Source: Phycisphaerae bacterium (GTDB taxonomy: Bacteria; Planctomycetota; Phycisphaerae; WQYP01). Taken from it: DNA of 64,000 nt. The notes below the pieces were generated by a model. That model was not told the DNA's origin. It made no database searches and saw nothing but the letters and a program-made list of their open reading frames with translations. A program made the translations under genes and the position numbers. This document shows, piece by piece, positions 10,616 to 28,532 of this stretch (position 1 is the first letter of the stretch; every line of letters begins with the position of its first letter). The DNA is taken from positions 3,091-67,090 of the forward strand of contig JBBRWV010000001.1 of NCBI GenBank assembly GCA_038248985.1. The letters run 5' to 3'.

Positions 10616-10914
10616 ACGGGGATTATAGCGGAAGTTATGGCGGATGGGGAAAAGGCTGGCGCGGGGAAACTCATCGGGACAGTCGGGGGTGTGGACGGGG
10701 CCGAGGAAGTTTCATGGTCGTTCGGTCAGATCGGAATGGAATTTTGATATTATTTGCTGCAATCGGCGAACGCGGTCGCCGTTAATCATATAATGTGAAG
10801 TTGCTTTTGCGCACGCGAACAGATGGGGTACTAAGCCAGTGTGTTCGGCGCGCGGATCAGCAGCACATGTTCATAAAATTTGATGTGTCTAGAAAAGCGC
10901 AGAACAGGTGATTG

Positions 10915-13383
10915 ATGAAAACTGCCGTGGAGATCGTATCGACGAAGGCTGGACGCGCGAAGAGAGGGTCGATTGTCGGGCGATGTGCGATCGGGCTGGT
11001 GGTTGCGGCAATCGGGGGAAGGGCTTGGGCGGCACCGGAAGATAAATCCGCTGCCAGGGATGCATCTAAGGACGGCGCAGTCAGTGCGGGCTCAGTGAAC
11101 GGTGGCACGGCCAAGCCGGGCGACAAGAGCGCCACCACCAAGCCAGGTGGGCAGGCGACCGCCAGTTCCCTGATTGAAGACCGGGCGGCAAGGAAGCTGC
11201 TCGCCGCCGGTGACGCCCGCCTGGCGATGGATCAGTCGCGCGAGGCGCTGGAGCTCTTTCAACAGGTGGTGGAACGCTATCCGCGTTCCGTGGTCCGTTT
11301 TGAAGCGTTCATGCGGATGGGCAAGTATTACCTGGAAAAGGCGCACGATCCGACCAAGGCCCTGCCGTACTTTGAGCGGTCGGCGGTGGAACTGAACGAG
11401 GATACGGCGATTCGTGGCGAAGCCATGCTGATGGTGGGGCGGTCCTATTATGATCAGAGCAAATGGCAGCAGGCCTTTGCCAGTTTGCGGCTGGTGACGA
11501 TTCAGTATCCCGGCACCGAATTTTCCAACCAGGCTTATTTCTACATTGGCAACGCCCACTACAAGTTGGGGGCCTACAGTCGGGCCATCGAAGCGTTCGG
11601 CAAGGTTGGTACCGCCATCAGCGATACGGATCTGGGCAAGAAATATATGGAGATCGGCAAACGAATGTTCGTGCGCGTCTCTGATCTGGATCTGACGGCC
11701 CTGCAGGAAGGATCCGCAGTTACCGCGACGGTCACCAGTTCCTCGGGTGACTCCGAGACCGTCAAGCTGTCGCGCGTGGGCCCGCCGAACTCACCCAACT
11801 ATCTGGGCGAGCTGGACACCACGCTGGGGGAGGCGGTGAAGGAAGACGGGATGCTGCAGGTGCTGGGGTCGGACAAGGTGATGATCACGTATATGGATGC
11901 GCAGACGGCCTCGAAAGAACTGAATATCGCCCGCAAAACAGAACTGCAGGCCGTGCATAACGGCATCGCCGACTTCATGGATGGGGCGTTCCGCGATCCG
12001 CTCAAGACGGTGGTGGTGGGAAAAACCGCTTACCTGCGGGTGATCGATCTCGATCGCGATATTTCGCCCAAGCCTGACACTGTGCAGGTAAAGGTCGTGG
12101 CGAAACGGCTCGTGAAGAAGGCCTCCACCACCTTGCCCGTCGCAGCAGACGCTGCGGATGCGGCCAAGAAAGTCGAAGGGGCCGAAGTTCCCAAGAAGGA
12201 TGCGTCCGGTGCGGACATTCTTCAGGATGACGATGAACTTCCGGTGTACAAGGTGATAGATGAAGTCACGCTGACGCTGGGGGAGCGCCCGCGCGAAGGC
12301 GTCACGGACAGCGGGGCAATGGGTGCCGAAAAGCCGAAGTCGATGCACACCGGGGTCTTTGGCAACAGCGTGCCGATACTGCCGGGGACGGCGGTGGCGG
12401 GAGACGGGGTTCTTCAGGTGGAGTTTTTTGATCGCATTGAAGTGCAGTATATGGATGAGATCAATTCGTCGGGCAAGCCACGCGAAGTGATCGGGGTATG
12501 CACCGCCGTGGACGGGGCGCTGGCCGATGTGAAGGCTTCCGACCCGAATATCGACAATATTCAGCTGGAATTGCAGACCCGGCTGAAAAAGGCAGAAGCA
12601 CTGACGAACATCGGTCGGATCTACAAGCAATTGGGCTTGAAAGAGCAGGCGGTTCTGCATTTCCGCCAGGGGATCAGCGAGTGCGACGCCTTGGATGCGC
12701 GGGCCCGAAACCTGGGTGGCGAGGTGTTGGAGACCCTGTATGTGCGTTTGTGGAAACTTTACCTGGAATTGGACGAACTGGACCAGGCCGCCAAGATGTG
12801 TCTGCAACTGCAAAAGGATTTTCCCAACAGCCAGTTTGTAGATGAGGCGTTGCTGGGCCTGGGCGAGACGAGTCTGAAGAAGGGCGATGCCGAGAAGGCT
12901 ATTTCCATCTTCAAACGAGTGTTGGATTTGCCGGTCAGCGCGCGCAAGGCCGATGCTTTGTATCAAATCGGCCTCTGCCAAGAGCAGATGGCCCAGCCCA
13001 AGGCCGGCACCTCCGGCGATGCGGCCAAGCCCAACCAAAAGCTGATGGAGTCGGCCTTCCTGAGCTATCAGCAAGTATTCCAGAGATATCCGACCAGCGG
13101 CGTGGCGGGTGATGCCGTCGGAAAAATGGCCGACTATTATCTCGCCGCCAAAGACTACGATCGCGCCATATCCACCCTGCAACAAGCCCTCGATGAATAC
13201 CCTGACGCCCAGTTCACTGATCGCATTTTGTATGACTTTGGACGCAGCCTCTACCGCATGCAGCGGACGGACGAGGCCTTGGCCAAGTTCCGGCAGTTGC
13301 TCAGTGAATATCCCCAGAGCAAATGGGCCAGCAAGGTGAAACCCGTGATCGCGTCACTCGAAAAACGCGGCAAAGGTGATTAG
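10915..13383 (+). CDS. Secreted tetratricopeptide-repeat protein (823 aa) containing repeated beta-modules shared with the downstream giant protein
   Basis: Signal peptide (MMKTAVEIVSTKAGRAKRGSIVGRCAIGLVVAAIGGRAWAAPE). Multiple TPR-like helical repeats, e.g. ALELFQQVVERYP, AYFYIGNAHYKLGAYSRAIEAF and AISTLQQALDEYPD. Repeated modules such as DGMLQVLGSDKVMITYMDAQ and DGVLQVEFFDRIEVQYMDE. Confidence 0.75.
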   Translation: MKTAVEIVSTKAGRAKRGSIVGRCAIGLVVAAIGGRAWAAPEDKSAARDASKDGAVSAGSVNGGTAKPGDKSATTKPGGQATASSLIEDRAARKLLAAGDARLAMDQSREALELFQQVVERYPRSVVRFEAFMRMGKYYLEKAHDPTKALPYFERSAVELNEDTAIRGEAMLMVGRSYYDQSKWQQAFASLRLVTIQYPGTEFSNQAYFYIGNAHYKLGAYSRAIEAFGKVGTAISDTDLGKKYMEIGKRMFVRVSDLDLTALQEGSAVTATVTSSSGDSETVKLSRVGPPNSPNYLGELDTTLGEAVKEDGMLQVLGSDKVMITYMDAQTASKELNIARKTELQAVHNGIADFMDGAFRDPLKTVVVGKTAYLRVIDLDRDISPKPDTVQVKVVAKRLVKKASTTLPVAADAADAAKKVEGAEVPKKDASGADILQDDDELPVYKVIDEVTLTLGERPREGVTDSGAMGAEKPKSMHTGVFGNSVPILPGTAVAGDGVLQVEFFDRIEVQYMDEINSSGKPREVIGVCTAVDGALADVKASDPNIDNIQLELQTRLKKAEALTNIGRIYKQLGLKEQAVLHFRQGISECDALDARARNLGGEVLETLYVRLWKLYLELDELDQAAKMCLQLQKDFPNSQFVDEALLGLGETSLKKGDAEKAISIFKRVLDLPVSARKADALYQIGLCQEQMAQPKAGTSGDAAKPNQKLMESAFLSYQQVFQRYPTSGVAGDAVGKMADYYLAAKDYDRAISTLQQALDEYPDAQFTDRILYDFGRSLYRMQRTDEALAKFRQLLSEYPQSKWASKVKPVIASLEKRGKGD

Positions 13384-13474: not shown

Positions 13475-16400
13475 ATGGCCCGCAAAAATAAATTCATGAG
13501 CAAAATTACCGCATCGGCCCTCCTGGTCGCACTGATGACCGGCGGCGTCGTTTTGTATCCGGATTTGGTGACGGCCGCGCCGAAGGACGCCAAAACCGTG
13601 CAGACGTCCACCGCTGCCGTGGCCGCCATCAAGACGCTACTCACCCAGATTTCTCAGGCCACTGGCGAAGAATTACGGTCTCCGCTGCGCCTGAAATTGG
13701 TGGACGCATACATGGAGCACGGACGCCCGTTGGAAGCGGCGGCCGAGTTGCAGGTATGGTTGAAGAACAATTCGAAAGCCCCGGAACGCGAGAGGGCTCT
13801 GCTGACCTTGATCAACGCCCAGCGCCAAAGCAATGACTGGGACGGTGCTGCGAGTGTGAGCCGCACATTTATACGCGAATATCCCAAATCCGCATCGCTG
13901 GAGAGCACGTTTTCCGGGTTGGTCGAAATTGCGCGTTATGGGCAGGCCTCCCCCGTAAGCGAAGCCTCCGCCCTGGGCGACTGGGTCGCGGCCAATCCGA
14001 ACGATGCCGCGAACGCCGGACGCATGTTGCGCCAAGCACGTTTACAGGAACAGTCCGGCGCCGTCGCTGAAGCGATTGCCACCCTGCGAAAATTTACCGC
14101 CAAATATCCCAAGGATCCGGCGGCGGGCGATGCCAGTTGGCGCGCGATTTACCTAACCCACGATCGCCTCCGACGCTCCGCCGAAGCCTTTGAGGCCGGT
14201 AAGATTTTCCTGAACGCCAATCCGAAACGCCCCAACAGCAGCAAGGAATGGCAGTGGCTGGGCGACCTGGCCCGTTCCATGGACAATCACCAGGAAGCGA
14301 TTCAGGCCTTCAAGAAGGCTCTGGCGGCTGATCCGACCAATCGAGAGTTGATCAATCAGTTTCAAGATTCTCTATGGCGCACCGGAAATATCCCGGAAAT
14401 GTCCGCGCTCTCCGATTTCATGACCAAGAACCTTCCTTGGGATTCGCAGAATTGGAACCTGCGGCTTGCGCTGGCCAACAAGAGCCTGGACGCCGACGGA
14501 AAAAAGAACGGCCCAGCCGTTCAGGCGGAAATGCTCTCTCTGATCGATAAGGGAGTAAGGCCCGGAGATGCCGCAGGGATCTACGAGCGGGCCTCCCTGG
14601 CTTTGGGAATAGACCCCAAAGTGATCACGGAAACGCTCAAAGGAAAATATGCCCAGGCCAAAAGGGAAGGACGCCGCGAACTGGCGGAACGGATTACGGA
14701 ACTCCTGCGTCGCACGCAGGGGGCGACCATCACCCAGGCCTTTATTGAGACGGAGCTGAAAGAGAATCCGCTCAACAATGGCAACTTGGTGCGCACCTAC
14801 GTTGAGATGTCGGTGAATGATCAGATTTGGGAGACCAACGAAAAGAAACGCACGAAATATGAGCTCGATGGGACAATTAAGAAGATTGCCGAGATTATCA
14901 AACCCTACGCCTATTTGCCTGAATTGCGCAAAGGGATGGAACAGGCCGGGGACGCCCTCCAACGCACCAAGCAGAAAGAATTGACCGTGGTACTGCGGCA
15001 GCAAATCGAAATGCTGTCCCAGACCGAGCTGGCCATACAAGTGGATATCGCCTATCGCGAAGCCCGTCGCGATTGGAAAAAAGCGACCGATGCGCTGACT
15101 ATCCTTTTGAAAGAATCCAAAACCAATCCGGCAGTATTTACCACTCTGGGCCACGATACGATGTGGACCCTGCTGGAACGCACCCCGCCCGAGGGCGTTG
15201 ACAAGGTCCTCGCCTGGTGGGGTGCCCAGGCCGACAGTCGCCCGGATGACATCTGGTTCAACAACATGGTCGGCGACGCATTCCGCCGCTACAAAAAATT
15301 CCCCGAAGCCGTGGTCTTCTATGCCCGCGGCAGCACCGGCACCGTCACCATCGAAAACAGCCAGAACTACAGCCAGGCACTGGGGTCGTTGATTGATGTT
15401 TACAGTTACGAGCTCAAGAAAAATGATGAAGCCGAAAAACTAATCGTCAATTTTGACCGCAACGCAACGTCGTATTCACCCCAGGCACGGCAGGAACGTT
15501 ACCGCCAGTTCGGCGATTTCTACGGCCGCTTGAACGCCCGCGACAAACAAATCAACTACTACCGCAAGGCCGCCGAACTCGGCATGTCCAACACCGGCTA
15601 CGATTCCGTCAAGAACCTCATGATTGTGCTGCCGCCTGCCGAGAGTGTCGCCTACGGTCAGAAGCTGCTGGCCGATGCGGCCTACGACAAATGGTCTCCC
15701 GAAATCGGCCTCATGGTGGCGCACCGCCAGGCCACGGGCTTGAAAGACATGGCCGCCGCCGTCGATACGCTGGCCTTGGCCAATGAAAAGCGCCTGACCA
15801 CCGGCACCTTCGATATGGACAACTGGGGAACATTCCGCGAACTGGTGTCGATGGGCCTTGATCTGGCCGACCCCAAACGCGTGACCGATCCCAAACGCAA
15901 GGAAATGCTCACCGGCATCAAGCCGCTGGAACCCGCCAAGCTGGACCAGCTGCTCGCCCTGGGAATGCAGTGGCTCGGTTCACAGCAGATGCACGAAGTC
16001 GCGCGGGAAATCATCCGCCGGGCCGGCACCTCCGGGGAACGCGGTGCCCAACTGGATATTTTCTCGCAGATTCTGGCACGTACCAAGGCCAATGACGGGT
16101 GGCACTGGGATCGCAACATGGAAATCATCAATGACGAAGTCGCCCGCGGAAATGAGGGGACGGCGTCCACCATGCTCCGATTGCTGCTGAAACAATCCAG
16201 TGGCTACAACGAAGCCGCCCGCTCCGCCGCTCGTTCGCTGCTCCTCAACACCTATAAAAAATTCGGTGAGGATCTGCTGGCGGTCGATGACAAGTCTCCG
16301 ATCGCGCCGCTGCTGAAAGGCGCCAGCTACCTGCGGCTCGGCGAGGAAAAAACCGCCTGGGAGATGTACCAGAAAAACGCGGAACTTTTCGCCCAGAAAA

Positions 16401-19400
16401 TTGACGAAATTCCCAGCGAATACGTGCTTTATATCGGCAATGAACTGGCCACCGGTTCCGATGCCGACCGCGATGTCGCCGAGCAACTGTTGCGCACGTG
16501 GCTGGCCCGCGCCGACAAAATCCAGGGCTTGGAGGGCTCGGTGAAGGCGGCGGTTCAGCTCAAGCTCGCTGACGTCTTCTACTATGGACGCCGCTTTGAC
16601 GTTGCCCGCGCCGAGTACCAATCAGTCATGGACAAGTATCCCGAAACTGCCCAGGCCATCGAAGCGCAGTTCCGCATCGGCGAGTCCTTCATGTACCAGA
16701 AGAACTACGTGGAGGCGACGAAAGTCTTCGAAAAACTGCGGAAAAACAAGGATACCGACATCGCCATCCGCGCGACCTTCATGCAGGGCGTCCTGCAGTA
16801 TGAAACCAACGCCCGCGAAGAAGCCCGGGAAACGTTCAAGGCTGTGCTCGACCTCTCCCCCTCCGAAGAAATCGCCTCCAAAACCCTCTTCCAACTGGCC
16901 TTGATCTACGGCGACGACAACCGCTTCAAAGAAATGTTGGACATGCTCTCGGCCATCGGCAACTACGGCCGCGAAGCCAAACGCTGGCACTCCCCCGGCA
17001 AACCCCTGACCGTCCTCATTCACGATCCGGACATGGCCATCGTTCAGGACGCCCGCTCCGTCCCCGTGCTCGTGACCACGTCCAATGGCGATCGCGAGTT
17101 GATCACGCTCGTTTCCGGCGCCGCCGGCAAGGGCTTCTTTCAGGCCGATCTGCCGACGACCCTGGGTGCCAGCAAACCCAATGACGGAACCCTGCAATTG
17201 CTGGGTTCAGACATCATCACCTATGACTATCCCGACGATTTCAAGGCGAAATTCAAATATGTCCCGCCCCCGCAGGGAAATATCCGCATTGCTGCGGACG
17301 CGACGTTCGCGGTCTCCAACGCCCACATCCAGGAAGAGAGCAAAAGAAGCGCCCTGCAACGCGCCGACAAAGACGGCAAAATCCAACGCCTGTCCGATGA
17401 AGCCAAGGAGTTTCGTGCCAATAACGAAATCAAGCCGGGCAATCCTCTCTACGTCCGCATCGTCGATCCCGACCGCTCCACCAACGTCGGCGTCAATCGC
17501 GTCGAAGTCGTCGCCCGGGCCGGCACCGGCGATACCGTCCGCATGTGGGTAAATGAAACCTCCGCCAACACGGGCATCTTTGAAGGAATGATCAAGACGG
17601 CCGAACGCCCCGCCGAGGCCATCGCTTCCGATAGCTCGCTGGGCAAACTTCCCGGTCTTGCCACCGATAAGGACACTGCCAGTGCGTGGGAGTCGCAACA
17701 CGATGGTCAACCCGGCAAGTGGCTTGCCGCTGACCTCAAAGATGTTTTCTCCATCAAGCAGTTCGCGTTCTCCATGCCTGACGACAAGCAACTCGCTGCG
17801 GCGCGCTTTACCATTGAGTCGTCCAACAACGGTACGTTGTGGACGCCTGTGCTGACGCAGGACAAAGGCAAGATTGCCCACGGACTCACGCTGAATTACG
17901 GTCCGATGCGTCACAAGCACTACGCTTGGAGCAAGGAAAAGGCGAAGTTCGCTGATGCGAAGGCCCCCGAAGATCTCACTTCCTACATCAACACCGTGGC
18001 CACGGCCAAGGTCGCTTCGCTCGACGCCAGCGCCGTCAACACCATGGCCCTGCCCGCCGTCGGCACCGATACCGAAGCGGATGTGCATTCGTTGGTTGGT
18101 TATTTCTTCGTCAACAAAACCGGCGTTCAAACTTTCCACGCCATCACCGGCGATAACGGTTCCGCCGCCCTCGTGATCGACGGCCGCGTAATCGCCGCCG
18201 ACAAGAAAGGCTTCTCGGAATGGGGCGTTGGCGTCGAGTTGACCCGCGGCTGGCACCACTTCGCCGGATTCATCACGTTGCGCGGCGCCTATACCGATCG
18301 CAGCAAGCCCGCCGGTTTCCGTTGCACCCCCATCGACACCTGGGGCGTCGATCAGGCGATGCAATACGCAACAGCCCAGCGCGGCGGTGAGAATGAACCC
18401 ATGCCCGTGCCTTCACTCATTTCCGTGCCCGCCGAGGGAAAACTCAAAGTCGAGGGCGCAACCCTCACGGCTGATTTTTCCGCTGCCCCCATTCCCGGCC
18501 GTCTCTTTCGCGTCCGATTCGAAAAATACAGCGGCGATTTCGTCAGCGTTTCCAACCTGCAAGTCACCGGTGCCGACGGCAAACTCCTTCTGCCCGCCGA
18601 AGGCAGCGTGGTATCCCTCGCCGATGATGACGTACTGCAAGTATCTCCTGGCGAAGACATTTCCGTGAGCTATGCCGATCAGGTCAACACCCGCACCCCC
18701 GGCGAAGCCCGCGCTCTCTCTGGCAAGTTGAAGGCCACCTACTACAACGCCAAAATCGCCGCGATTGCCTACGAGGTAAAATCCACCACTGAAGGCGTGG
18801 AACGTCGCATCAAGGAACTTTACCGGATCGATCCCGGTGATCGCATCATCGCCCACATCACCGATTACGATGAAGACACCTCGCCGGAAATCAACAAGCT
18901 GCAATTCAAGGTACGTTCCGAAAGCGGCGCCGAAGTCGCTCTGGAAGCCACCGAAACCGATGCCACCTCCGGCATCTTCACCAAGGAAATTGAAACTGGC
19001 GAGGGCCTCGGAAAACTCTCCGTGAAACCCGGCGAACGCATCTACCTTATCTATACCGATCGGCAGAACACACAGCCCGGTTCGCGCACCGATCGCGTCG
19101 CTGAACTCTCCGTCGTCAAACCCACCGACGGCCTGGTGAACATCCTGCCCACGCGGGCCGAATTGCCCCCGCCGCCCAAAAAAGATGCCGCCCCCGTATT
19201 CGCCACTGGCGATGGCGTGACCATCGGCGAACCCCGCATAATCTATCTGAAGCCTGAACCCGGGAAGCCCGCGCGTGTGGTGCTCGCCGCCCCGCTCACT
19301 GTCGAAGTCATCGATCAGGATGCCGCCAAGGATTCCCACTCGACGGTGGTGGTGGAAATTACCACGTCTTCCGGCGCCAAATTGAAACTCCCGCTGGAAC

Positions 19401-20965
19401 TCTCAGACCAAACCAGCCAAGGCTCCTGGGGCCACGGTTCCGCCATGGCGGACGGTCGTTTCGTCGGCCAGGCCTTGCTCGTCCTCGGCAAGCCCGATGA
19501 AAACGGCAAGTCCAACACCTCCGTCTCCGTGGAACGTGCACGGCGCCTCCTGGGCGCATGGCGTTACAGCGATGGCGACAATGCCAATTCTGATGCCGGT
19601 TCCGTCAAGGCTCCCGTGCTGCCGATTCTCGGGTCCGACACGATCACTGCGGTCTACAACGATAAGCGTTCAACCAGCGGCGATAACCAGGAACGCAAGT
19701 CCGAAGGACGCATGGTCACCGATGCCACGCTCACGAATCTCGACCGTGGATTCCTCGAACCCGTGGCCACCATTCACCTCGGTGAAAAACTTTACCTCCG
19801 CGTCGAGGATGCCGATCGCGACACCACGGCCGAGCAGGACGAAGTCACCGTGACCCTTACCAGCAACGCCGGCGAGAAACTGGACATCACGTTGAAAGAA
19901 ACCCTGGGTCACTCCGGTACATTCACCGCCGAAGTGCCCACCCATCACGCCACCAAGCCCGACCCTGCCAATGGCACGCTGGATACCAATTTCGGCGACT
20001 CGCTTTCACTGGCCTACGTGGATGACTCGCACACCCAGTCGATGTCACCCATCGAACGCAAACTCAGCATCCAGGTCGCCCTCGGAGCCGATGCAGCGAT
20101 GGCCGCGTTCACCAAGCAGTTCGGCAGCGAGGAAATCGCCGTCGAAACCCAGTTCAAGCTCGCCGAATGCTATTTCGAGATTTTCAAGAGTCAGAATCAA
20201 ATCAAGGCCACCGCCGAGGCCCGCGTCGCCCTCGAATCCGGCCGCGCCATCCTCGCCACCGTCCGTGACAACTACCGCGGCTCCGGGTACGAAGCCCGCG
20301 TGCTCTACCTGCTCGGCGGCTTCCACCAGGAACTCAAGGAACTCGACCAGGCCATCGAATGTTACAACGGCATCATCCGCTCGCATTCCAACAACGCCTT
20401 CGCGCCTGATGCCCAGTACAAACTCGCCCAGTGCTTCGAAGACAAAAATGAGATGGATCGTGCCAGCGAAGAGTATGTGCGGCTGGCCTACACCTACCCC
20501 GATAATCCCCTCATCGCCAAGTGCATGGTCCGCCTGAACGACTACTTCTTCAAGATTAACAAGTTCCAGGTCGCCGCCAACATCTGCGGCCAATTTCTGG
20601 AGCAGTACGGCGAGCATGAACTGGCCCCCAAGATCGCCTTCCGCCAGGGTCAATGCTACTTCAAGGCTGCTGAAACCCCCGTCCGCGAAGGTGAGCCGAA
20701 AACCGATCCGAAGGCTAATTACTTCCTCGCCGCCAAGGCCTTCGATGTACTGGTGGAACGCTACACCGATAGCGACCTGCGTCCCGATGCCATGTTCTGG
20801 GCCGGTCGGGCGTATCATGAGGCCGGTGAGGAAGCCCTGGCGTATCGTCGTTACCGTCGCGTCACCTGGGACTTTCCAGATTCCGATGCCGCACGTTATG
20901 CTCGCGGTCAGTTGACGCTGCCGGCCATGCTCAACGCGGCCAAGGATGATTCCGGCAGCAAGTAA
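13475..20965 (+). CDS. Giant secreted protein (2496 aa): N- and C-terminal TPR arrays, central F5/8 type C (discoidin)-like and PA14-like carbohydrate-binding domains, plus repeated beta-modules
   Basis: Signal peptide (MARKNKFMSKITASALLVALMTGGVVLYPDLVTAAP). Discoidin-like block DKDTASAWESQHDGQPGKWLAADLKDVFSIKQFAFSMP...FTIESSNNGTLW. PA14-like block VGYFFVNKTGVQTFHAITGDNGSAALVIDGRVI...GWHHFAGFITLRGAY. TPR-like C-terminus, e.g. AQYKLAQCFEDKNEMDRASEEY. A recurring module ...G.F.......DG.L...GSD.I...Y.D occurs at least 5 times. Confidence 0.8.
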   Translation: MARKNKFMSKITASALLVALMTGGVVLYPDLVTAAPKDAKTVQTSTAAVAAIKTLLTQISQATGEELRSPLRLKLVDAYMEHGRPLEAAAELQVWLKNNSKAPERERALLTLINAQRQSNDWDGAASVSRTFIREYPKSASLESTFSGLVEIARYGQASPVSEASALGDWVAANPNDAANAGRMLRQARLQEQSGAVAEAIATLRKFTAKYPKDPAAGDASWRAIYLTHDRLRRSAEAFEAGKIFLNANPKRPNSSKEWQWLGDLARSMDNHQEAIQAFKKALAADPTNRELINQFQDSLWRTGNIPEMSALSDFMTKNLPWDSQNWNLRLALANKSLDADGKKNGPAVQAEMLSLIDKGVRPGDAAGIYERASLALGIDPKVITETLKGKYAQAKREGRRELAERITELLRRTQGATITQAFIETELKENPLNNGNLVRTYVEMSVNDQIWETNEKKRTKYELDGTIKKIAEIIKPYAYLPELRKGMEQAGDALQRTKQKELTVVLRQQIEMLSQTELAIQVDIAYREARRDWKKATDALTILLKESKTNPAVFTTLGHDTMWTLLERTPPEGVDKVLAWWGAQADSRPDDIWFNNMVGDAFRRYKKFPEAVVFYARGSTGTVTIENSQNYSQALGSLIDVYSYELKKNDEAEKLIVNFDRNATSYSPQARQERYRQFGDFYGRLNARDKQINYYRKAAELGMSNTGYDSVKNLMIVLPPAESVAYGQKLLADAAYDKWSPEIGLMVAHRQATGLKDMAAAVDTLALANEKRLTTGTFDMDNWGTFRELVSMGLDLADPKRVTDPKRKEMLTGIKPLEPAKLDQLLALGMQWLGSQQMHEVAREIIRRAGTSGERGAQLDIFSQILARTKANDGWHWDRNMEIINDEVARGNEGTASTMLRLLLKQSSGYNEAARSAARSLLLNTYKKFGEDLLAVDDKSPIAPLLKGASYLRLGEEKTAWEMYQKNAELFAQKIDEIPSEYVLYIGNELATGSDADRDVAEQLLRTWLARADKIQGLEGSVKAAVQLKLADVFYYGRRFDVARAEYQSVMDKYPETAQAIEAQFRIGESFMYQKNYVEATKVFEKLRKNKDTDIAIRATFMQGVLQYETNAREEARETFKAVLDLSPSEEIASKTLFQLALIYGDDNRFKEMLDMLSAIGNYGREAKRWHSPGKPLTVLIHDPDMAIVQDARSVPVLVTTSNGDRELITLVSGAAGKGFFQADLPTTLGASKPNDGTLQLLGSDIITYDYPDDFKAKFKYVPPPQGNIRIAADATFAVSNAHIQEESKRSALQRADKDGKIQRLSDEAKEFRANNEIKPGNPLYVRIVDPDRSTNVGVNRVEVVARAGTGDTVRMWVNETSANTGIFEGMIKTAERPAEAIASDSSLGKLPGLATDKDTASAWESQHDGQPGKWLAADLKDVFSIKQFAFSMPDDKQLAAARFTIESSNNGTLWTPVLTQDKGKIAHGLTLNYGPMRHKHYAWSKEKAKFADAKAPEDLTSYINTVATAKVASLDASAVNTMALPAVGTDTEADVHSLVGYFFVNKTGVQTFHAITGDNGSAALVIDGRVIAADKKGFSEWGVGVELTRGWHHFAGFITLRGAYTDRSKPAGFRCTPIDTWGVDQAMQYATAQRGGENEPMPVPSLISVPAEGKLKVEGATLTADFSAAPIPGRLFRVRFEKYSGDFVSVSNLQVTGADGKLLLPAEGSVVSLADDDVLQVSPGEDISVSYADQVNTRTPGEARALSGKLKATYYNAKIAAIAYEVKSTTEGVERRIKELYRIDPGDRIIAHITDYDEDTSPEINKLQFKVRSESGAEVALEATETDATSGIFTKEIETGEGLGKLSVKPGERIYLIYTDRQNTQPGSRTDRVAELSVVKPTDGLVNILPTRAELPPPPKKDAAPVFATGDGVTIGEPRIIYLKPEPGKPARVVLAAPLTVEVIDQDAAKDSHSTVVVEITTSSGAKLKLPLELSDQTSQGSWGHGSAMADGRFVGQALLVLGKPDENGKSNTSVSVERARRLLGAWRYSDGDNANSDAGSVKAPVLPILGSDTITAVYNDKRSTSGDNQERKSEGRMVTDATLTNLDRGFLEPVATIHLGEKLYLRVEDADRDTTAEQDEVTVTLTSNAGEKLDITLKETLGHSGTFTAEVPTHHATKPDPANGTLDTNFGDSLSLAYVDDSHTQSMSPIERKLSIQVALGADAAMAAFTKQFGSEEIAVETQFKLAECYFEIFKSQNQIKATAEARVALESGRAILATVRDNYRGSGYEARVLYLLGGFHQELKELDQAIECYNGIIRSHSNNAFAPDAQYKLAQCFEDKNEMDRASEEYVRLAYTYPDNPLIAKCMVRLNDYFFKINKFQVAANICGQFLEQYGEHELAPKIAFRQGQCYFKAAETPVREGEPKTDPKANYFLAAKAFDVLVERYTDSDLRPDAMFWAGRAYHEAGEEALAYRRYRRVTWDFPDSDAARYARGQLTLPAMLNAAKDDSGSK

Positions 20966-22751: not shown

Positions 22752-22790
22752 CGATTCGCCGCTCTGGCGGCTGCATTCAGGAGTTTCTAT

Positions 22791-23207
22791 ATGGCGACGA
22801 TCAGCAATCTGAAAACCGGCGTGAAGGGAACCGCCAAAGAGATCCAGGAATTCGTGGCCTCTCTCAAAGGCCGCACACCTGCTGAAGCCATGGGCGTCGT
22901 CGCCCAAAGTCACCTCCTGCAGGCCATTGTCATCTCCGTGCTCGTTCAGGGTGGCATCATGGGGCTATCCTGCGGCATCGCTTATTACAGAGGTGACCCT
23001 CCCGCGCCGGTGGCCCCCGTTATCGTGGCCCCCGCGCCGGCCAACCCCCGGCCCGCCCCCGTACCGGCCGCCACCAACACCGCAGCCACTTCCGCCCCCT
23101 CCGAAGACGCCATCAAGAAAGTCATGAACACCGACATCATCAAACCGGAAGACCAGACCAAAAAAGGCCCCCGCGATGTGGATGACATTCTCAACAACTT
23201 TCGCTGA
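22791..23207 (+). CDS. Membrane-anchored proline-rich protein: TonB/TolA-like N-terminal anchor plus rod, lacking a recognisable C-terminal TonB domain
   Basis: Single TM (LLQAIVISVLVQGGIMGLSCGIAYY) followed by the Pro/Ala-rich segment PPAPVAPVIVAPAPANPRPAPVPAAT and a short charged C-terminus. Position in the operon is that of tonB/tolA. Confidence 0.5.
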   Translation: MATISNLKTGVKGTAKEIQEFVASLKGRTPAEAMGVVAQSHLLQAIVISVLVQGGIMGLSCGIAYYRGDPPAPVAPVIVAPAPANPRPAPVPAATNTAATSAPSEDAIKKVMNTDIIKPEDQTKKGPRDVDDILNNFR

Positions 23208-23604
23208 ACGTGTCTCCCTCCGTGTCCCTTTCCTAACCTCCGACAGGAATTGAATTCTGGAAACGTCACCCTCCCAACCTCGCTTTACCTTCCGCAAGGC
23301 CAGCTCCCTCAAGCCGCCGACCGGTATCGGCCGCCTGTTCACCGGCATCAATAACGCCCTCGAACGTCTCTGGGAGATCAGCAAGCCCTACATCCTGGCC
23401 GTCATCGGTCCGGTCGTAAACCTGGTCACCAAGTCGTTCCGCCGCAATGACAAAGAATGGAACCCCGCCCGGTCCGATGCTTGGTACTATGGCAAACGCG
23501 ATGCCCGCTTCTATCACGGCCTCACCTGGTCCGCCCTCATCCAGGGACTCGTCCTCCTCTGGTTCACGGTCGGCATCGGCCTCACCGGCTGCAATGAATA
23601 CCTG

Positions 23605-24512: not shown

Positions 24513-26159
24513 ATGTCGATGCGTACTTTGCACCGGACAAGACGTTTTTCCCCCGCCCTGCCCGCACTCGCCTTGGCAGCACTCTGCGCCCTCTTCCCGG
24601 CGGCTCAGTCCCCTGCCCGCGCCGATGAACCCGGCCTGCTCTCCAAGGAACGCTGGACCAACCTCACCGAAATCCAGTTCGCCGAACTCAAGTCCGCCGA
24701 AGACACATTCCGTAAAAAAGCCTACACCGCCGCACGTAACGCCTATGAAAAATTCATGACCGTCAACAGCAAGTCCGATGTCGCCACCTATTGCCAGTTG
24801 ATGATGGGCGAATGCCTCCGCCTCAACGGCAAACCCAACGAAGCCATCTCCGACTTTCAGTTCGTCCGCGATCTCGCCGAAGATTCCGATGATGCCAAGT
24901 GGGCCTACCTCCGCATCGCCCAATCCCACCGCCAGGCCGGCAACGCCGAAAAAGCCGCCCTCATCTATAAGGAAATCTTCAAGGACAACGGCACCCACGT
25001 CACCGCCTTCGTTGCCGTCCTCGAACTCGTCGACGTGCTCGAGAGTCAAAACAAACTTCGTGACCGCGCTCCCTATCTCGACGACTTCGCTGAACGCTTT
25101 CTCAAAAAACGCTATGACGGCTGGGCGTATCAACGCGCCATCCACACCCTCGCCTATGAAAAATTGCTCGCCGGTTCGCCCGACGTCGCCTTCACCCTCC
25201 TCAAAACCGTCGAAAAATCCGCCGACGCCGAACGCACCGTTCTCAACATCGGCTCCAACGCCGTCCGCGATCTCAGCACCAAGGAAACCGTCAACCGTCG
25301 CGATGCCCTCGCCGAAGCCCTCACCAACATGGTCATGGCCTGGCTCCGCGAAAATAAGGACCGCACCAACCACCAGGATCTCACCCGCGGCGTCGTCTTC
25401 CTCTACATCAACATCGGCAAGGGCGAAGAGGGTGCCAAGCAGGCCCTCGCCGCGCGCAAAATCTACAGCGATGCCCGCTGGACTCTCGAACTCATGGTCG
25501 ACCTCTACCGCCACGATAAAAAAATGGACAAGGCCGTCGCCACCGCCTCCGAAGCCCGCCGCATCCACAAAGATGCCGACTGGACCCTCGACATGTACGC
25601 CGAACAACTCAAAGACAGCGGCGACCTCGGCCAGGCCGTCTCCGCCTGGGATCTCATGAAGGACCGCAGGCACGCCCTCTTCCGCAGTTCTGATGCCCTC
25701 CGCCACGCCGGAAAAATTACCGAGGCCATCGAACGGCGCCGCAAGATTTCCGAGCTTGACCCTACGGCTGGCTCCGAAGTCGCCATGTGGATCGGTGACG
25801 TGCTGGAGCAATCAGGCAAATACGATGAAGCCATCAAGGAATACCTGCTCGCCCAGAACGAACCGCGGAATCTCTACCAGATTGCCGAATGCAAATCCAA
25901 ACAGAAAAAATACAAGGAAGCCATCGAGCAATACTCCACCATCGCCGCCGCCTTTGAAAAAGAAACTCCCGAGGCCATGTATCGCATGGCCCTCGAGTAC
26001 GAAAAACTCTCCGACACCACCACCGCCATCAATTTCCTCCGCCGCATCTGCCGCACCTTCCCCAAGTCGCAGGCCGCCTCCAGCGCCCACGTCCGCCTGC
26101 AATCCAAATACAAAATCGATGAAACCCTCGGCGGTTCCGAAGGCGACAAGAAAGACTGA
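24513..26159 (+). CDS. Secreted TPR-like repeat protein (548 aa), in CpoB/YbgF-like position at the end of the exbBD cluster
   Basis: Signal peptide (MSMRTLHRTRRFSPALPALALAALCALFPAAQSPARA). TPR-like helical repeats throughout, e.g. AYLRIAQSHRQAGNAEKAALIYKEIF and EAIKEYLLAQNEPRNLYQIAECKSKQKKYKEAIEQY. Start is 3 bp after the DUF4159 stop. Confidence 0.75.
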   Translation: MSMRTLHRTRRFSPALPALALAALCALFPAAQSPARADEPGLLSKERWTNLTEIQFAELKSAEDTFRKKAYTAARNAYEKFMTVNSKSDVATYCQLMMGECLRLNGKPNEAISDFQFVRDLAEDSDDAKWAYLRIAQSHRQAGNAEKAALIYKEIFKDNGTHVTAFVAVLELVDVLESQNKLRDRAPYLDDFAERFLKKRYDGWAYQRAIHTLAYEKLLAGSPDVAFTLLKTVEKSADAERTVLNIGSNAVRDLSTKETVNRRDALAEALTNMVMAWLRENKDRTNHQDLTRGVVFLYINIGKGEEGAKQALAARKIYSDARWTLELMVDLYRHDKKMDKAVATASEARRIHKDADWTLDMYAEQLKDSGDLGQAVSAWDLMKDRRHALFRSSDALRHAGKITEAIERRRKISELDPTAGSEVAMWIGDVLEQSGKYDEAIKEYLLAQNEPRNLYQIAECKSKQKKYKEAIEQYSTIAAAFEKETPEAMYRMALEYEKLSDTTTAINFLRRICRTFPKSQAASSAHVRLQSKYKIDETLGGSEGDKKD

Positions 26160-26267: not shown

Positions 26268-26561
26268 ATGCTCACTCAGGAAGACCCCAGCGCCTCACGC
26301 CCCACGCGCCCCACCGCGCCGCGCGCCGCATGGGTCGCCCCCTTTCTGCTTCTCCTCCTCGTGCTCGTCCTCGTGCTGCGGCACGATTTCTGGAATTGGG
26401 ATACGCCCTACCCCCTCCTTTTCGGCTTCCTCCCCATCGGACTCTGGTGGCAGGCGCTCGTCTCCATCCTCGCCTCTATCATGATGGCCCTCTTCGTCCG
26501 CCTCGCCTGGCCTCATCACCTCGAAGAAGAACTGCAACCTCCGCCCGACCAGCATAAATAG
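26268..26561 (+). CDS. Small membrane protein of the DUF3311 type, usually paired with SSS transporters
   Basis: 97 aa with two hydrophobic helices (APFLLLLLVLVLVL; LVSILASIMMALFV). Sits immediately upstream of a sodium:solute symporter, as is typical for DUF3311. Confidence 0.55.
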   Translation: MLTQEDPSASRPTRPTAPRAAWVAPFLLLLLVLVLVLRHDFWNWDTPYPLLFGFLPIGLWWQALVSILASIMMALFVRLAWPHHLEEELQPPPDQHK

Positions 26562-26621
26562 CTCCCACTACGCCGTTCGTATTCGCCTCCCTTCCTCACT
26601 GAAATTGCCCGGAGCCTCCTC

Positions 26622-28532
26622 ATGGTCCCCGCGATCATTGTCTTCCTCTACCTTGCCGTCGTCCTCTACGTCGGCATCTTCGCTTTCCGTAAATCCAAAA
26701 AAGGCGCCGGTTCCGCCGAGGAATTCTTCGTCGCCAACCGCTCCCTCGGCACCTTCGTCTTCCTCCTCTCCCTCTTCGGCTCCAACATGACCTCCTTCGC
26801 TATCCTCGGCTCCTCCGGCCTCGCCTTCCGCAATGGCATTGGCGTATTCGGACTTATGGCCTCCATCTCCGGCATCGTCATCCCCCTGTCCATCTTCTTC
26901 GTCGGCACCCGCATCTGGGCCCACGGCAAAAAATTCGGACACATGACCCAGGTCCAACTCTTCCGCGACCGCTGGGAAATGGGCCACATCGGCACCGTCA
27001 TTTTCGCCCTCCAAGCCCTCATGCTCATTCCCTACATCATCATCGGCGTCATGGGCGGCGGAGAAACCCTCAACGGCGTCTCCGGAGGCACCGTCCCCTA
27101 CTGGCTCGGCGGCGGCGTCGTCGCCCTCGTCGTCATGTCCTACGTCTTCTTCGGCGGCATGCGCGGCACCGCGTGGGTTAACACCCTCCAAACCCTCATG
27201 TTCCTCGTCTTCGGCACCATCGCCTTCATCATCATCGCCCGCGGCATCGGCGGCTTGGGCGTCACCGTGCAATCCATGGCCGATACCCTCAAGCCCCAGC
27301 CCGCCGCCACGATGCAACCCTCCATGACCGAACGCTTCGCCGCATCCGCTCCCGCATCCACCGCTCTTTCCGCCGCCGCAACATCCCCACCGCGCTCCGC
27401 CATCGCCGCTGCCCCACGCACCGTTCCTCCGCCTGATGGCGCCGTCCTAATTCGCGGCAAAACCAACCCTGCGGATCCCCATGCACAAGATCGCATCGCC
27501 AAAGGTTACTGGGCGTCCTACGCCTTGATTCCCTTGTCTTCCATCATGTTTCCCCACATTGCCATTTTCTGCCTCACCGCCAAAAAACTCAGCAGCTTCC
27601 GCAAAACCGTCATCCTCTACCCCCTGTGCATTCTCGCCATCTGGTTTCCTGCGGTATTCCTCGGCGCGGTCGCTTCGTCCCAACCCGCAGTCATTGCGAA
27701 CCTCGCCATCGAATCCCAGGGATTCCCCGCCTTCCAAACCGCCAATCCGCCAGCCGCCGCCCTCATGCAAAAACTGGCCCACGGTGAAATCACAGCGAAA
27801 GACGCCGCCGCCAAGCCGCTCCTCGCCGGGCCGCTCAAAGGCGAAATGAAAAAACTCGCAAATTCCAACTCCGACGGCGTCATGCTCGACATGCTCCGAC
27901 TCTTCGCCCCCGGCGTTCTCGCCGGCATCCTCGGGGCCGCCATCATGGCCTGCGTCATGGCCTCCGACTCCCAGATCCTCGCTCTCTCCACGATGTGGGC
28001 CGAAGACGTCTACCGCTTCCACGGCGGCACCTCCGAAGCCAAACAGGTCTGGTCCGCCCGCGCCTTCGTCGTCATCATCACCATCATCGCCTACATCATC
28101 GCCCTCGCCGTCCACCAGTATTCCAACATCTTCGAACTCGCCATCCAGTACGCCTTCTCCGGCTACGCCTCCATGGCACCCATCATGCTCGCCGCCCTTT
28201 TCTGGAAACGCTCCACGAAGTGGGGCGCACTCGCCGCCACCCTCTGGATCGCCTTCTCCCTTCTCGGCATCACCATCATCCAGGCCTACACAGTCTCCGC
28301 CGCGCCGGTCGTCGCGACCCAACCCCCCAACATCATCTTCTCCCTCGGCAATCTCCCCATCCTCCTCCGCGAATACAACCGCGTTTCCTTCACCGAATTC
28401 CGCTTCCTCATTGTGCTCCCCATGTTCATTGGCTCCTGCCTCTGCGTCTACTTGGGCTCTATCCTCACCCAACCTCCGTCACTTGCCACAATCCACCGCT
28501 ACTTCCCGCGCAAATCTCCTCTCCTTCACTGA
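26622..28532 (+). CDS. Sodium:solute symporter (SSS) family transporter with an unusual ~70-aa low-complexity Ala/Pro/Ser-rich insertion
   Basis: The N-terminus FFVANRSLGTFVFLLSLFGSNMTSFAILGSSGLAFRNG matches SSS-family N-terminal conservation, with 13+ TM segments. The insertion PQPAATMQPSMTERFAASAPASTALSAAATSPPRSAIAAAPRTVPPPDG is mid-protein. Confidence 0.85.
   Translation: MVPAIIVFLYLAVVLYVGIFAFRKSKKGAGSAEEFFVANRSLGTFVFLLSLFGSNMTSFAILGSSGLAFRNGIGVFGLMASISGIVIPLSIFFVGTRIWAHGKKFGHMTQVQLFRDRWEMGHIGTVIFALQALMLIPYIIIGVMGGGETLNGVSGGTVPYWLGGGVVALVVMSYVFFGGMRGTAWVNTLQTLMFLVFGTIAFIIIARGIGGLGVTVQSMADTLKPQPAATMQPSMTERFAASAPASTALSAAATSPPRSAIAAAPRTVPPPDGAVLIRGKTNPADPHAQDRIAKGYWASYALIPLSSIMFPHIAIFCLTAKKLSSFRKTVILYPLCILAIWFPAVFLGAVASSQPAVIANLAIESQGFPAFQTANPPAAALMQKLAHGEITAKDAAAKPLLAGPLKGEMKKLANSNSDGVMLDMLRLFAPGVLAGILGAAIMACVMASDSQILALSTMWAEDVYRFHGGTSEAKQVWSARAFVVIITIIAYIIALAVHQYSNIFELAIQYAFSGYASMAPIMLAALFWKRSTKWGALAATLWIAFSLLGITIIQAYTVSAAPVVATQPPNIIFSLGNLPILLREYNRVSFTEFRFLIVLPMFIGSCLCVYLGSILTQPPSLATIHRYFPRKSPLLH

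Follow-up and report, generated by a model that had tools for sequence, protein, structure and literature searches.

A short ExbD-linked membrane protein with a TonB-like setting but no TonB_C domain belongs to an unnamed family of Planctomycetota and Verrucomicrobiota

We analysed a stretch of 64,000 nucleotides (nt) from a Phycisphaerae bacterium (assembly GCA_038248985.1, contig JBBRWV010000001.1), called the window below, in which a short gene directly follows one exbB-type and two exbD-type genes. Its product, referred to here as the small protein, is a new and unnamed type among the motor-associated couplers of the bacterial envelope, related to the kinds already known. Judged from its sequence, it resembles TonB in where its gene lies, in its topology and in its flexible spacer, but it is not a member of the TonB/TolA family. 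In the Ton, Tol, Agl-Glt and related systems, a proton motor of the inner membrane is coupled to the outer envelope via a protein made of an anchor, a spacer and a terminal globular domain. The family described here keeps the anchor and the spacer but ends in a peptide motif, which would widen the modes by which such motors act on their targets. The family is in addition a marker of a seven-gene envelope module, so far uncharacterised, in a superphylum with a cell envelope that is still under debate. Since one genome with this module is from the cultured genus Haloferula, the idea could be tested genetically.

The small gene is under purifying selection

The open reading frame (ORF) encoding the small protein is a genuine gene under purifying selection and not an artefact, because orthologues keep its frame under purifying selection, an AGGAG site precedes it, and hundreds of relatives of the same length share the same two motifs. 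The AGGAG lies at 22779-22783, 7 nt 5' of the ATG, and the gene starts 39 nt 3' of the end of the second ExbD gene. Its guanine-plus-cytosine (GC) content by codon position is 0.62/0.48/0.74. Against two orthologues of 49-50% identity, a distance at which synonymous sites are near saturation, the ratio of nonsynonymous to synonymous differences per site (pN/pS) is 0.39-0.46 overall and reaches its lowest values, 0.25-0.32, in the last 35 codons. A word-indexed search with the window protein alone gave five relatives, three of which (31-50% identity) were traced to contigs, where they occupy the same syntenic slot. A search of the window against Rfam gave no match.

The original prediction had itself named an artefact of Pro-rich, GC-rich sequence as a possible outcome. 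Such a spurious ORF, or a decayed or truncated canonical TonB/TolA, would fit a region of about 58-60% GC in which several alternative-frame ORFs overlap the gene. Both versions are extremely improbable given what is conserved: orthologues keep the frame at the pN/pS given above, the AGGAG site is well placed before the ATG, the relatives in a family of at least 381 sequence clusters share the short length together with two conserved motifs, and TonB_C was found in none of the members seen, so that this conservation already refutes a decayed gene. The overlapping ORFs, of 66-139 amino acids (aa), lie at 22927-23127 (+), 22965-23384 (-) and 22985-23269 (-); such ORFs are common where GC content is high, and every homologue found for this region corresponds to the annotated frame.

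A predicted single-pass anchor with a Pro-rich spacer and a conserved tail

The predicted order of one transmembrane (TM) segment, a Pro-rich spacer and a short tail was borne out by hydropathy, by composition and by an AlphaFold2 (AF2) model. The model was built on an alignment of 62 sequences and has a mean predicted local distance difference test score (pLDDT) of 75. It contains two helices at residues 4-25 and 30-38 and a TM helix at 41-67 with pLDDT 90-97, after which residues 68-104 are extended and just three short helices follow. The Kyte-Doolittle maximum, 1.98 with a 19-residue window, falls at residues 46-64. Five Lys/Arg against three Asp/Glu precede the TM segment, and this charge balance, together with the GYF_2 and zinc-ribbon fusions of some relatives described below, places the N-terminus in the cytoplasm, so that the protein is predicted to be single-pass with an N-in/C-out orientation.

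The N-terminal region, modelled as a helix-turn-helix that runs up to the TM segment, carries in full the most conserved motif of the family, EIQEFVASLKGRTPAEAMGVVAQSHL; the invariant or nearly invariant columns in the family alignment (A3) are E17, F21, G27, P30, E32, G35, A38, S40 and L42. The spacer is conserved in composition and not in sequence, and its segment GDPPAPVAPVIVAPAPANPRPAPVPAAT holds 10 Pro in 28 residues. About 50 residues had been expected beyond that segment; a short tail is indeed present, although we counted 43. Beyond the whole spacer (residues 67-103) there are 35 residues, in which neither AF2 nor Foldseek gives a globular domain. These residues, SEDAIKKVMNTDIIKPEDQTKKGPRDVDDILNNFR, are the window lineage's version of a family motif that is anchored at the C-terminus, and the protein ends ...DVDDILNNFR. 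The window protein thus has the whole feature set of the family, namely the N-terminal motif, the TM segment, the low-complexity linker, the C-terminal motif and a gene placed after the ExbD pair.

The family is widespread and short

The family appears from profile searches to be unnamed, uncharacterised, without a curated family and widespread in Planctomycetota and Verrucomicrobiota. A search of 1.84 billion representative sequences, clustered at 50% identity, gave at least 381 clusters at E<=1e-3, of which 247 were at E<=1e-10, and lengths were 111-250 aa in the best 150 of the 381 clusters listed. A second profile search listed 120 more relatives, which lack Pfam domains. Every named relative listed is a 'hypothetical protein', and the taxa include Phycisphaera, Pirellulales, other Planctomycetes and Verrucomicrobiales.

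Family motifs were derived from alignment A3 and a survey of 248 members. The best-conserved element is the cytoplasmic juxtamembrane motif ELReFxxxLKGRSPxEmLGxVAxSxL. It is followed by the TM segment, in which 22 hydrophobic positions come after a basic boundary residue and usually end in T..PY, and then by a linker without alignable sequence, in which Pro makes up 15-19%, Ala, Ser and Thr about 50% and hydrophobic residues <=10%; its median length is about 54 aa. The C-terminal motif, LGiGEtKxAxPxxNPLExxxDDLLkxL, covers about 30 residues, and its positions line up across members when numbered back from the C-terminus, with hydrophobic residues at -2, -5, -6 and -13, acidic residues at -7, -8 and -12, and Pro at -14. 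A variant of this tail, VMNTDxxKPEDQxxKGPRDVxDLL, is found in the window protein and the relatives nearest to it.

In the longer of the members seen, the extra length is N-terminal and cytoplasmic, and consists of a GYF_2 domain or a zinc ribbon. GYF_2 is found at the N-terminus of P0019 and P0151 above the Pfam cutoff, and an MJ0042-type zinc ribbon at that of P0086 above the TIGR02098 cutoff. The N-terminus of P0148 is GYF-like, and carriers of either module are a minority of the family.

No TonB- or TolA-type domain is found

The absence of a TonB_C or TolA domain III fold, another part of the original prediction, held in every search made. TonB_C (PF03544) binds the TonB box by beta-strand addition. 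Pfam and NCBIfam searches at E<=1 gave no TonB_C, TolA or other curated domain in the small protein, and at E<=0.01 none of the 62 relatives matched the TonB_C or the TolA C-terminal domain. A sequence profile search of the PDB at E<=10 gave no TonB or TolA, TolA domain III (PF06519) was matched by neither the small protein nor its relatives in the Pfam and PDB profile searches, and Foldseek of the model against the PDB gave nothing below E=9.7.

Several weak matches were set aside. Two of the 62 members matched tolA_full at E about 6e-3, far below the cutoff and through low-complexity sequence. Some members gave NCBIfam matches to GltJ, TolA, VirB10, FtsN and GspB, all far below the cutoffs and confined to low-complexity or GYF parts; the best GltJ match had E 8.6e-4, for a cutoff of 450 bits. 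The PADLOC matches of the small protein to C3a123 (E 1.6e-3) and of the neighbouring ExbB to ZorA (E 4.4e-3), and PDB profile matches of the small protein to designed dTor proteins and to FliL, were judged to be chance or generic.

The N-terminal architecture of TonB/TolA had also been proposed, and it holds in part. The TM segment and the spacer are there, whereas the SHLS-type His and its position within the TM are not, and about 30 residues of conserved cytoplasmic motif come in addition. The His of SHLS mediates binding of TonB and TolA to their motors. In the window protein, S40-H41-L42 sits at the cytoplasmic boundary, ahead of a basic residue and the 22-residue hydrophobic core and thus outside the TM, and the His of the window's 'SHLL' is replaced by G/K/D/R/S/P/N in relatives. 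TonB also has a predicted beta-strand, the 'motor box', in the disordered region after its TM; the window protein has PVAPVIVAP 10-17 residues after the TM, where AF2 gives no strand.

The small gene follows the ExbD pair in a conserved module

Conservation of the gene's surroundings was assessed in 8 loci from look-ups and a genome scan and in 58 more from a metagenome scan. The eight include an Opitutia metagenome-assembled genome (MAG), two Planctomycetaceae MAGs and a Verrucomicrobium genome, GCA_040366745.1, whose DUF4159 protein is identical to HAHE_31820 of Haloferula helveola (NCBI name). Three named loci came from a genome scan seeded by a 9-sequence alignment. Neighbours were classified by phmmer against the module proteins of three lineages, and the denominators below are the loci with enough flank.

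The prediction that the gene occupies a tonB- or tolA-like slot is upheld, and comparison of orthologous clusters gave the same slot in a gene order that is nearly invariant. On one strand, the order is giant TPR/F5_F8_type_C protein, ExbB, ExbD1, ExbD2, small protein, DUF4159 protein and a TPR protein of about 550 aa. In 46 of 47 loci the gene that immediately precedes the small gene is ExbD2; ExbB (27/32) and the giant protein (24/28) also lie upstream, and DUF4159 (33/36) and the TPR protein (24/26) downstream. In the cultured-type Verrucomicrobium genome (locus L069), the start and stop codons of the small gene overlap both neighbours. Neither TolB nor Pal is encoded in the conserved module, and neither is a TonB-dependent receptor.

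The module is broken up in some marine lineages, represented by L057 and L053. At L057 (5087-6453), the ExbD-ExbD-small trio stands alone, flanked by SSF and MMPL genes that are unrelated to it and run on the opposite strand; ExbB is not adjacent, and the 6 kb of downstream sequence analysed hold no DUF4159 gene. At L053 (4843-6462), ExbD-ExbD-small-DUF4159-TPR is kept, with no ExbB or giant gene upstream. The trio survives in both exceptions, which makes the ExbD pair the tightest partner of the small gene.

DUF4159 is not favoured as a missing effector domain

According to the original prediction, the small protein would be one part of a split TonB/TolA, an anchor plus rod whose effector domain is supplied in trans, possibly by the downstream DUF4159 protein. 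The genes are adjacent in the 33 of 36 loci noted above, DUF4159 often overlapping the end of the small gene, and both proteins are predicted to have disordered periplasmic linkers. We nevertheless consider this reading unlikely. The AF2 model of the full-length DUF4159 protein gives a hydrophobic helix at 84-110 and a low-confidence or disordered stretch at 111-200 before the alpha/beta domain. With an anchor helix and about 90 disordered residues of its own, DUF4159 needs no small protein to hold it in the membrane. The small protein, whose own C-terminal peptide is conserved, is likewise not a bare rod. Fusions point the same way: none between the small protein and DUF4159 was found in the best 150 profile matches, the best 120 alignment matches or 120 DUF4159 relatives, and among the roughly 250 family members seen there is no fusion to DUF4159 or to any C-terminal domain. 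All of these members are short, and extra length is N-terminal, which does not fit the idea of a split protein. The L057 trio exists without DUF4159 in the 6 kb downstream, and the DUF4159 fold is not TonB_C-like but resembles glutamine-amidotransferase alpha/beta domains. An effector supplied in trans by DUF4159 is therefore not favoured, although the small protein may cooperate with DUF4159.

The fold assignment comes from PDB matches, the best of which is 4i66, a structural-genomics DUF4159 structure (E 2.6e-10, target TM-score 0.79), followed by glutamine-amidotransferase domains; the 50 matches listed include no von Willebrand factor A (vWA) protein. Public gene calls start the DUF4159 gene at ATG 23605, giving a 301-aa product (P0156) without the N-terminal region and anchor. 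The frame is open from 23254, where ATT 23254 or CTG 23257 is the probable start: AGGA lies upstream of the start at 23254, the alignment with orthologues of 415 aa begins at their Met, for which they have ATG at the equivalent codon, and there is no ATG, GTG or TTG before 23605. In 40 DUF4159 relatives (alignment A6), an invariant Cys and the block GC.E.Y.MPAGGG follow directly on the anchor helix. The window version, C113-G123, reads LTGC-NEYLMPAGGG and is followed by a basic KVxKVxKK and by Gly-rich stretches; LTGC is lipobox-like but about 110 residues from the N-terminus. When the DUF4159 protein was the sole query of a genome scan, no match resulted, and no functional study was found in the literature on DUF4159, alone or with ExbD.

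A possible tether between the stator and a module partner

We give about an even chance to a model in which the small protein is a stator-associated tether that docks to the stator by its N-terminus and TM segment and to a module partner by its C-terminal peptide. Our confidence is likewise evenly balanced that it is a fixed subunit of an envelope module specific to Planctomycetota and Verrucomicrobiota, with a channel of the ExbB pentamer type and a stator formed by an ExbD1/ExbD2 heterodimer at its centre. According to the tether model, the N-terminal juxtamembrane motif and the TM segment would dock the small protein to the ExbB/ExbD stator, and a disordered periplasmic tail of 51-111 residues would cross the periplasm. 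An extended polyproline-like chain rises about 0.3 nm per residue, and a linker of about 54 residues in this form would span roughly 15 nm. The acidic/hydrophobic C-terminal peptide would then be a short linear docking motif for a periplasmic or outer-membrane partner, with the three secreted TPR proteins of the module as the first candidates and the DUF4159 domain as the second. A TPR protein is favoured since short acidic peptides, many of them at a C-terminus, are common ligands of TPR domains. Proton-driven movement of the stator could in this way be coupled to, or gated by, the partner without a globular transducer domain. Analogies that support the model are GltJ of M. xanthus and the non-TonB transducers proposed for PVC gene clusters that also hold a TPR gene and two tolR-like genes, both taken up below.

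Several points weigh against the tether model. Stator binding and peptide docking are both steps that we infer. The SHLS His is absent from the family, so any contact with the stator must use an interface other than that of TonB and TolA. No conserved motor-box-like hydrophobic strand after the TM was found at the family level, where offsets 37-70 are <=10% hydrophobic. The tail of the window lineage, as its alignment indicates, diverges from the main family motif. A likeness to another class of protein, which offers the model a further analogy, should also be read with caution: in the supplement of PMC12204202, transducers 1 and 2 of Tichowtungia aerotolerans, which are of the vWA type discussed below, end ...TMEDLLKNNDLGD and ...TMEDILKNNDLSDD, and these EDLLKNN-type tails resemble the DVDDILNNFR, DDLLKDLK and DDLLKxL tails of the small family. 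The resemblance covers about 6 residues and may reflect a shared docking tail or chance, which makes it a lead and not evidence.

In an alternative that we regard as improbable, the small protein is a regulatory or assembly subunit of the stator that faces the cytoplasm. Its function would lie in the N-terminal motif and, in some lineages, in GYF or zinc-ribbon modules that receive cytosolic signals, and the tail would be secondary, for example a spacer or a localisation tag. Conservation in the family is highest in the juxtamembrane motif, GYF_2 and zinc-ribbon domains are fused at the N-terminus, and in GltJ a TonB-like protein linked to a motor is already known to be switched from the cytosol (PMC11135422). 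The C-terminal motif, however, is also strongly conserved, and in the window lineage pN/pS is lower there than elsewhere in the gene, and an incidental tail is hard to square with these data. The tether and the cytoplasm-facing subunit are not mutually exclusive.

A wider proposal, which we put forward tentatively and hold to be rather doubtful, is that 5:2 motors of the ExbB/ExbD type have in the small protein and its family a third class of periplasmic coupler, in which the globular domain is replaced by a C-terminal linear motif captured by TPR scaffolds. The module would then be a proton-driven envelope machine specific to the Planctomycetes-Verrucomicrobia-Chlamydiae (PVC) bacteria and possibly a stand-in for Tol-Pal in Planctomycetes, a group reported to be without Pal (supplement of PMC12204202).

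Coordinates and neighbouring genes

Table 1. Features of the module and of the small protein in the window.
Feature	Position	Strand	Basis and remarks
Small protein gene	22791..23207	+	ATG start, 138 aa, bitopic membrane protein, stop codon 23205-23207
N-terminal region, residues 1-41	22791..22913	+	Predicted cytoplasmic, two helices, contains the motif EIQEFVASLKGRTPAEAMGVVAQSHL
Transmembrane helix, residues 42-66	22914..22988	+	Hydropathy, AF2, family survey
Pro/Ala/Thr-rich extended spacer, residues 67-103	22989..23099	+	Composition, AF2
C-terminal tail, residues 104-138	23100..23204	+	SEDAIKKVMNTDIIKPEDQTKKGPRDVDDILNNFR, 35 aa, conserved
TPR protein, 823 aa, 5' of the giant gene	10912..13383	+	Pfam; syntenic in closest relatives
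Giant secreted protein, 2496 aa, first core-module gene	13475..20965	+	Pfam: TPR blocks at both ends, F5/8 type C
ExbB/TolQ-type proton-channel subunit, 275 aa	21012..21839	+	PF01618 at 2.5e-24
ExbD/TolR paralogue 1, 152 aa	21880..22338	+	PF02472 at 2.3e-19; TM Asp in TSTADVAF
ExbD/TolR paralogue 2, 138 aa	22335..22751	+	PF02472 at 7.1e-13; TM Asp in STADIAF
Membrane-anchored DUF4159 protein, about 418 aa	23254..24510	+	PF13709 at 1.9e-24
Secreted TPR protein, 548 aa, last conserved module gene	24513..26159	+	Many TPR Pfam matches

The coordinates are collected in Table 1. The best NCBIfam match of the ExbB protein is tolQ, at 96 bits for a cutoff of 221, and that of ExbD is tolR, also below its cutoff. 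The two ExbD genes overlap by 4 nt, and both products keep the TM Asp. For the 548-aa TPR protein, the YbgF/CpoB model TIGR02795 gives 76 bits, which falls short of its cutoff of 90.1. Orthologues of the giant protein, which has long beta-rich middle regions, measure 2369-2502 aa and stand in the same position; those of the 823-aa TPR protein measure 840, 856 and 730 aa in L001, L004 and L069.

Downstream of the module, at 26268-28532, a DUF3311-like small membrane protein and an SSF sodium:solute symporter are encoded, syntenic in L001 and L004. The window symporter is 636 aa long against 584 aa for its orthologues in these two loci, with an apparent extra Ala/Pro/Ser-rich insertion at residues ~235-300.

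Comparison with known systems

With TonB, the small protein shares a gene beside exbB/exbD, a single-pass N-in anchor and a Pro-rich, non-helical spacer that could span part of the periplasm. It differs in that it ends in a peptide motif of about 30 residues in place of TonB_C. The SHLS of TonB sits inside the TM; in the small protein S-x-L falls outside it, and the His varies among relatives. A conserved motor-box strand was not found at family level, the module has no TonB-dependent receptor, and the conserved cytoplasmic motif of about 30 residues is found in neither TonB nor TolA.

The tolQ-tolR-tolA-tolB-pal-cpoB system offers a parallel order of channel, stator, anchor-plus-spacer, periplasmic alpha/beta protein and TPR protein. 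Unlike that system, the module is without TolA domain III and without a Pal/OmpA-like gene, DUF4159 takes the slot of the TolB beta-propeller, and there are two ExbD paralogues and a 2500-aa TPR protein.

GltJ of the M. xanthus Agl-Glt gliding machinery is a motor-associated TonB-like protein with cytosolic ZnR and GYF modules, one TM segment and a flexible periplasmic region; its cytosolic region has 377 residues, the ZnR/GYF modules act as a switch and the protein ends in TonB-C (PMC11135422). The small protein resembles GltJ and GltG in being bitopic with a predicted cytosolic N-terminus and a flexible periplasmic region, and some family members carry GYF_2 or an MJ0042-type zinc ribbon. 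It differs from GltJ in the absence of TonB-C and of so long a cytosolic region, both of which most of its family lack, and in that these modules occur in a few relatives (P0019, P0151, P0086) and not in the window protein.

Finally, TM-anchored vWA proteins of PVC bacteria, encoded beside TPR, tolQ-like and two tolR-like genes, have been described as 'monomeric force transducers', and SHLS/His35 in the TM, a disordered linker and a globular vWA C-terminal domain are reported for them (Williams-Jones et al. 2025, PMC12204202). The small protein is not mentioned in the main text of that paper or in the supplement passages that we consulted. The DUF4159 neighbour was considered as a vWA transducer and rejected, with BLASTP against the Tichowtungia protein at E 0.15 and the glutamine-amidotransferase-like fold given above. 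The small protein lacks a globular domain and a conserved His, but it shares with the vWA transducers the same taxa, the same type of gene neighbourhood and the concept of a transducer that is not a TonB (PMC12204202).

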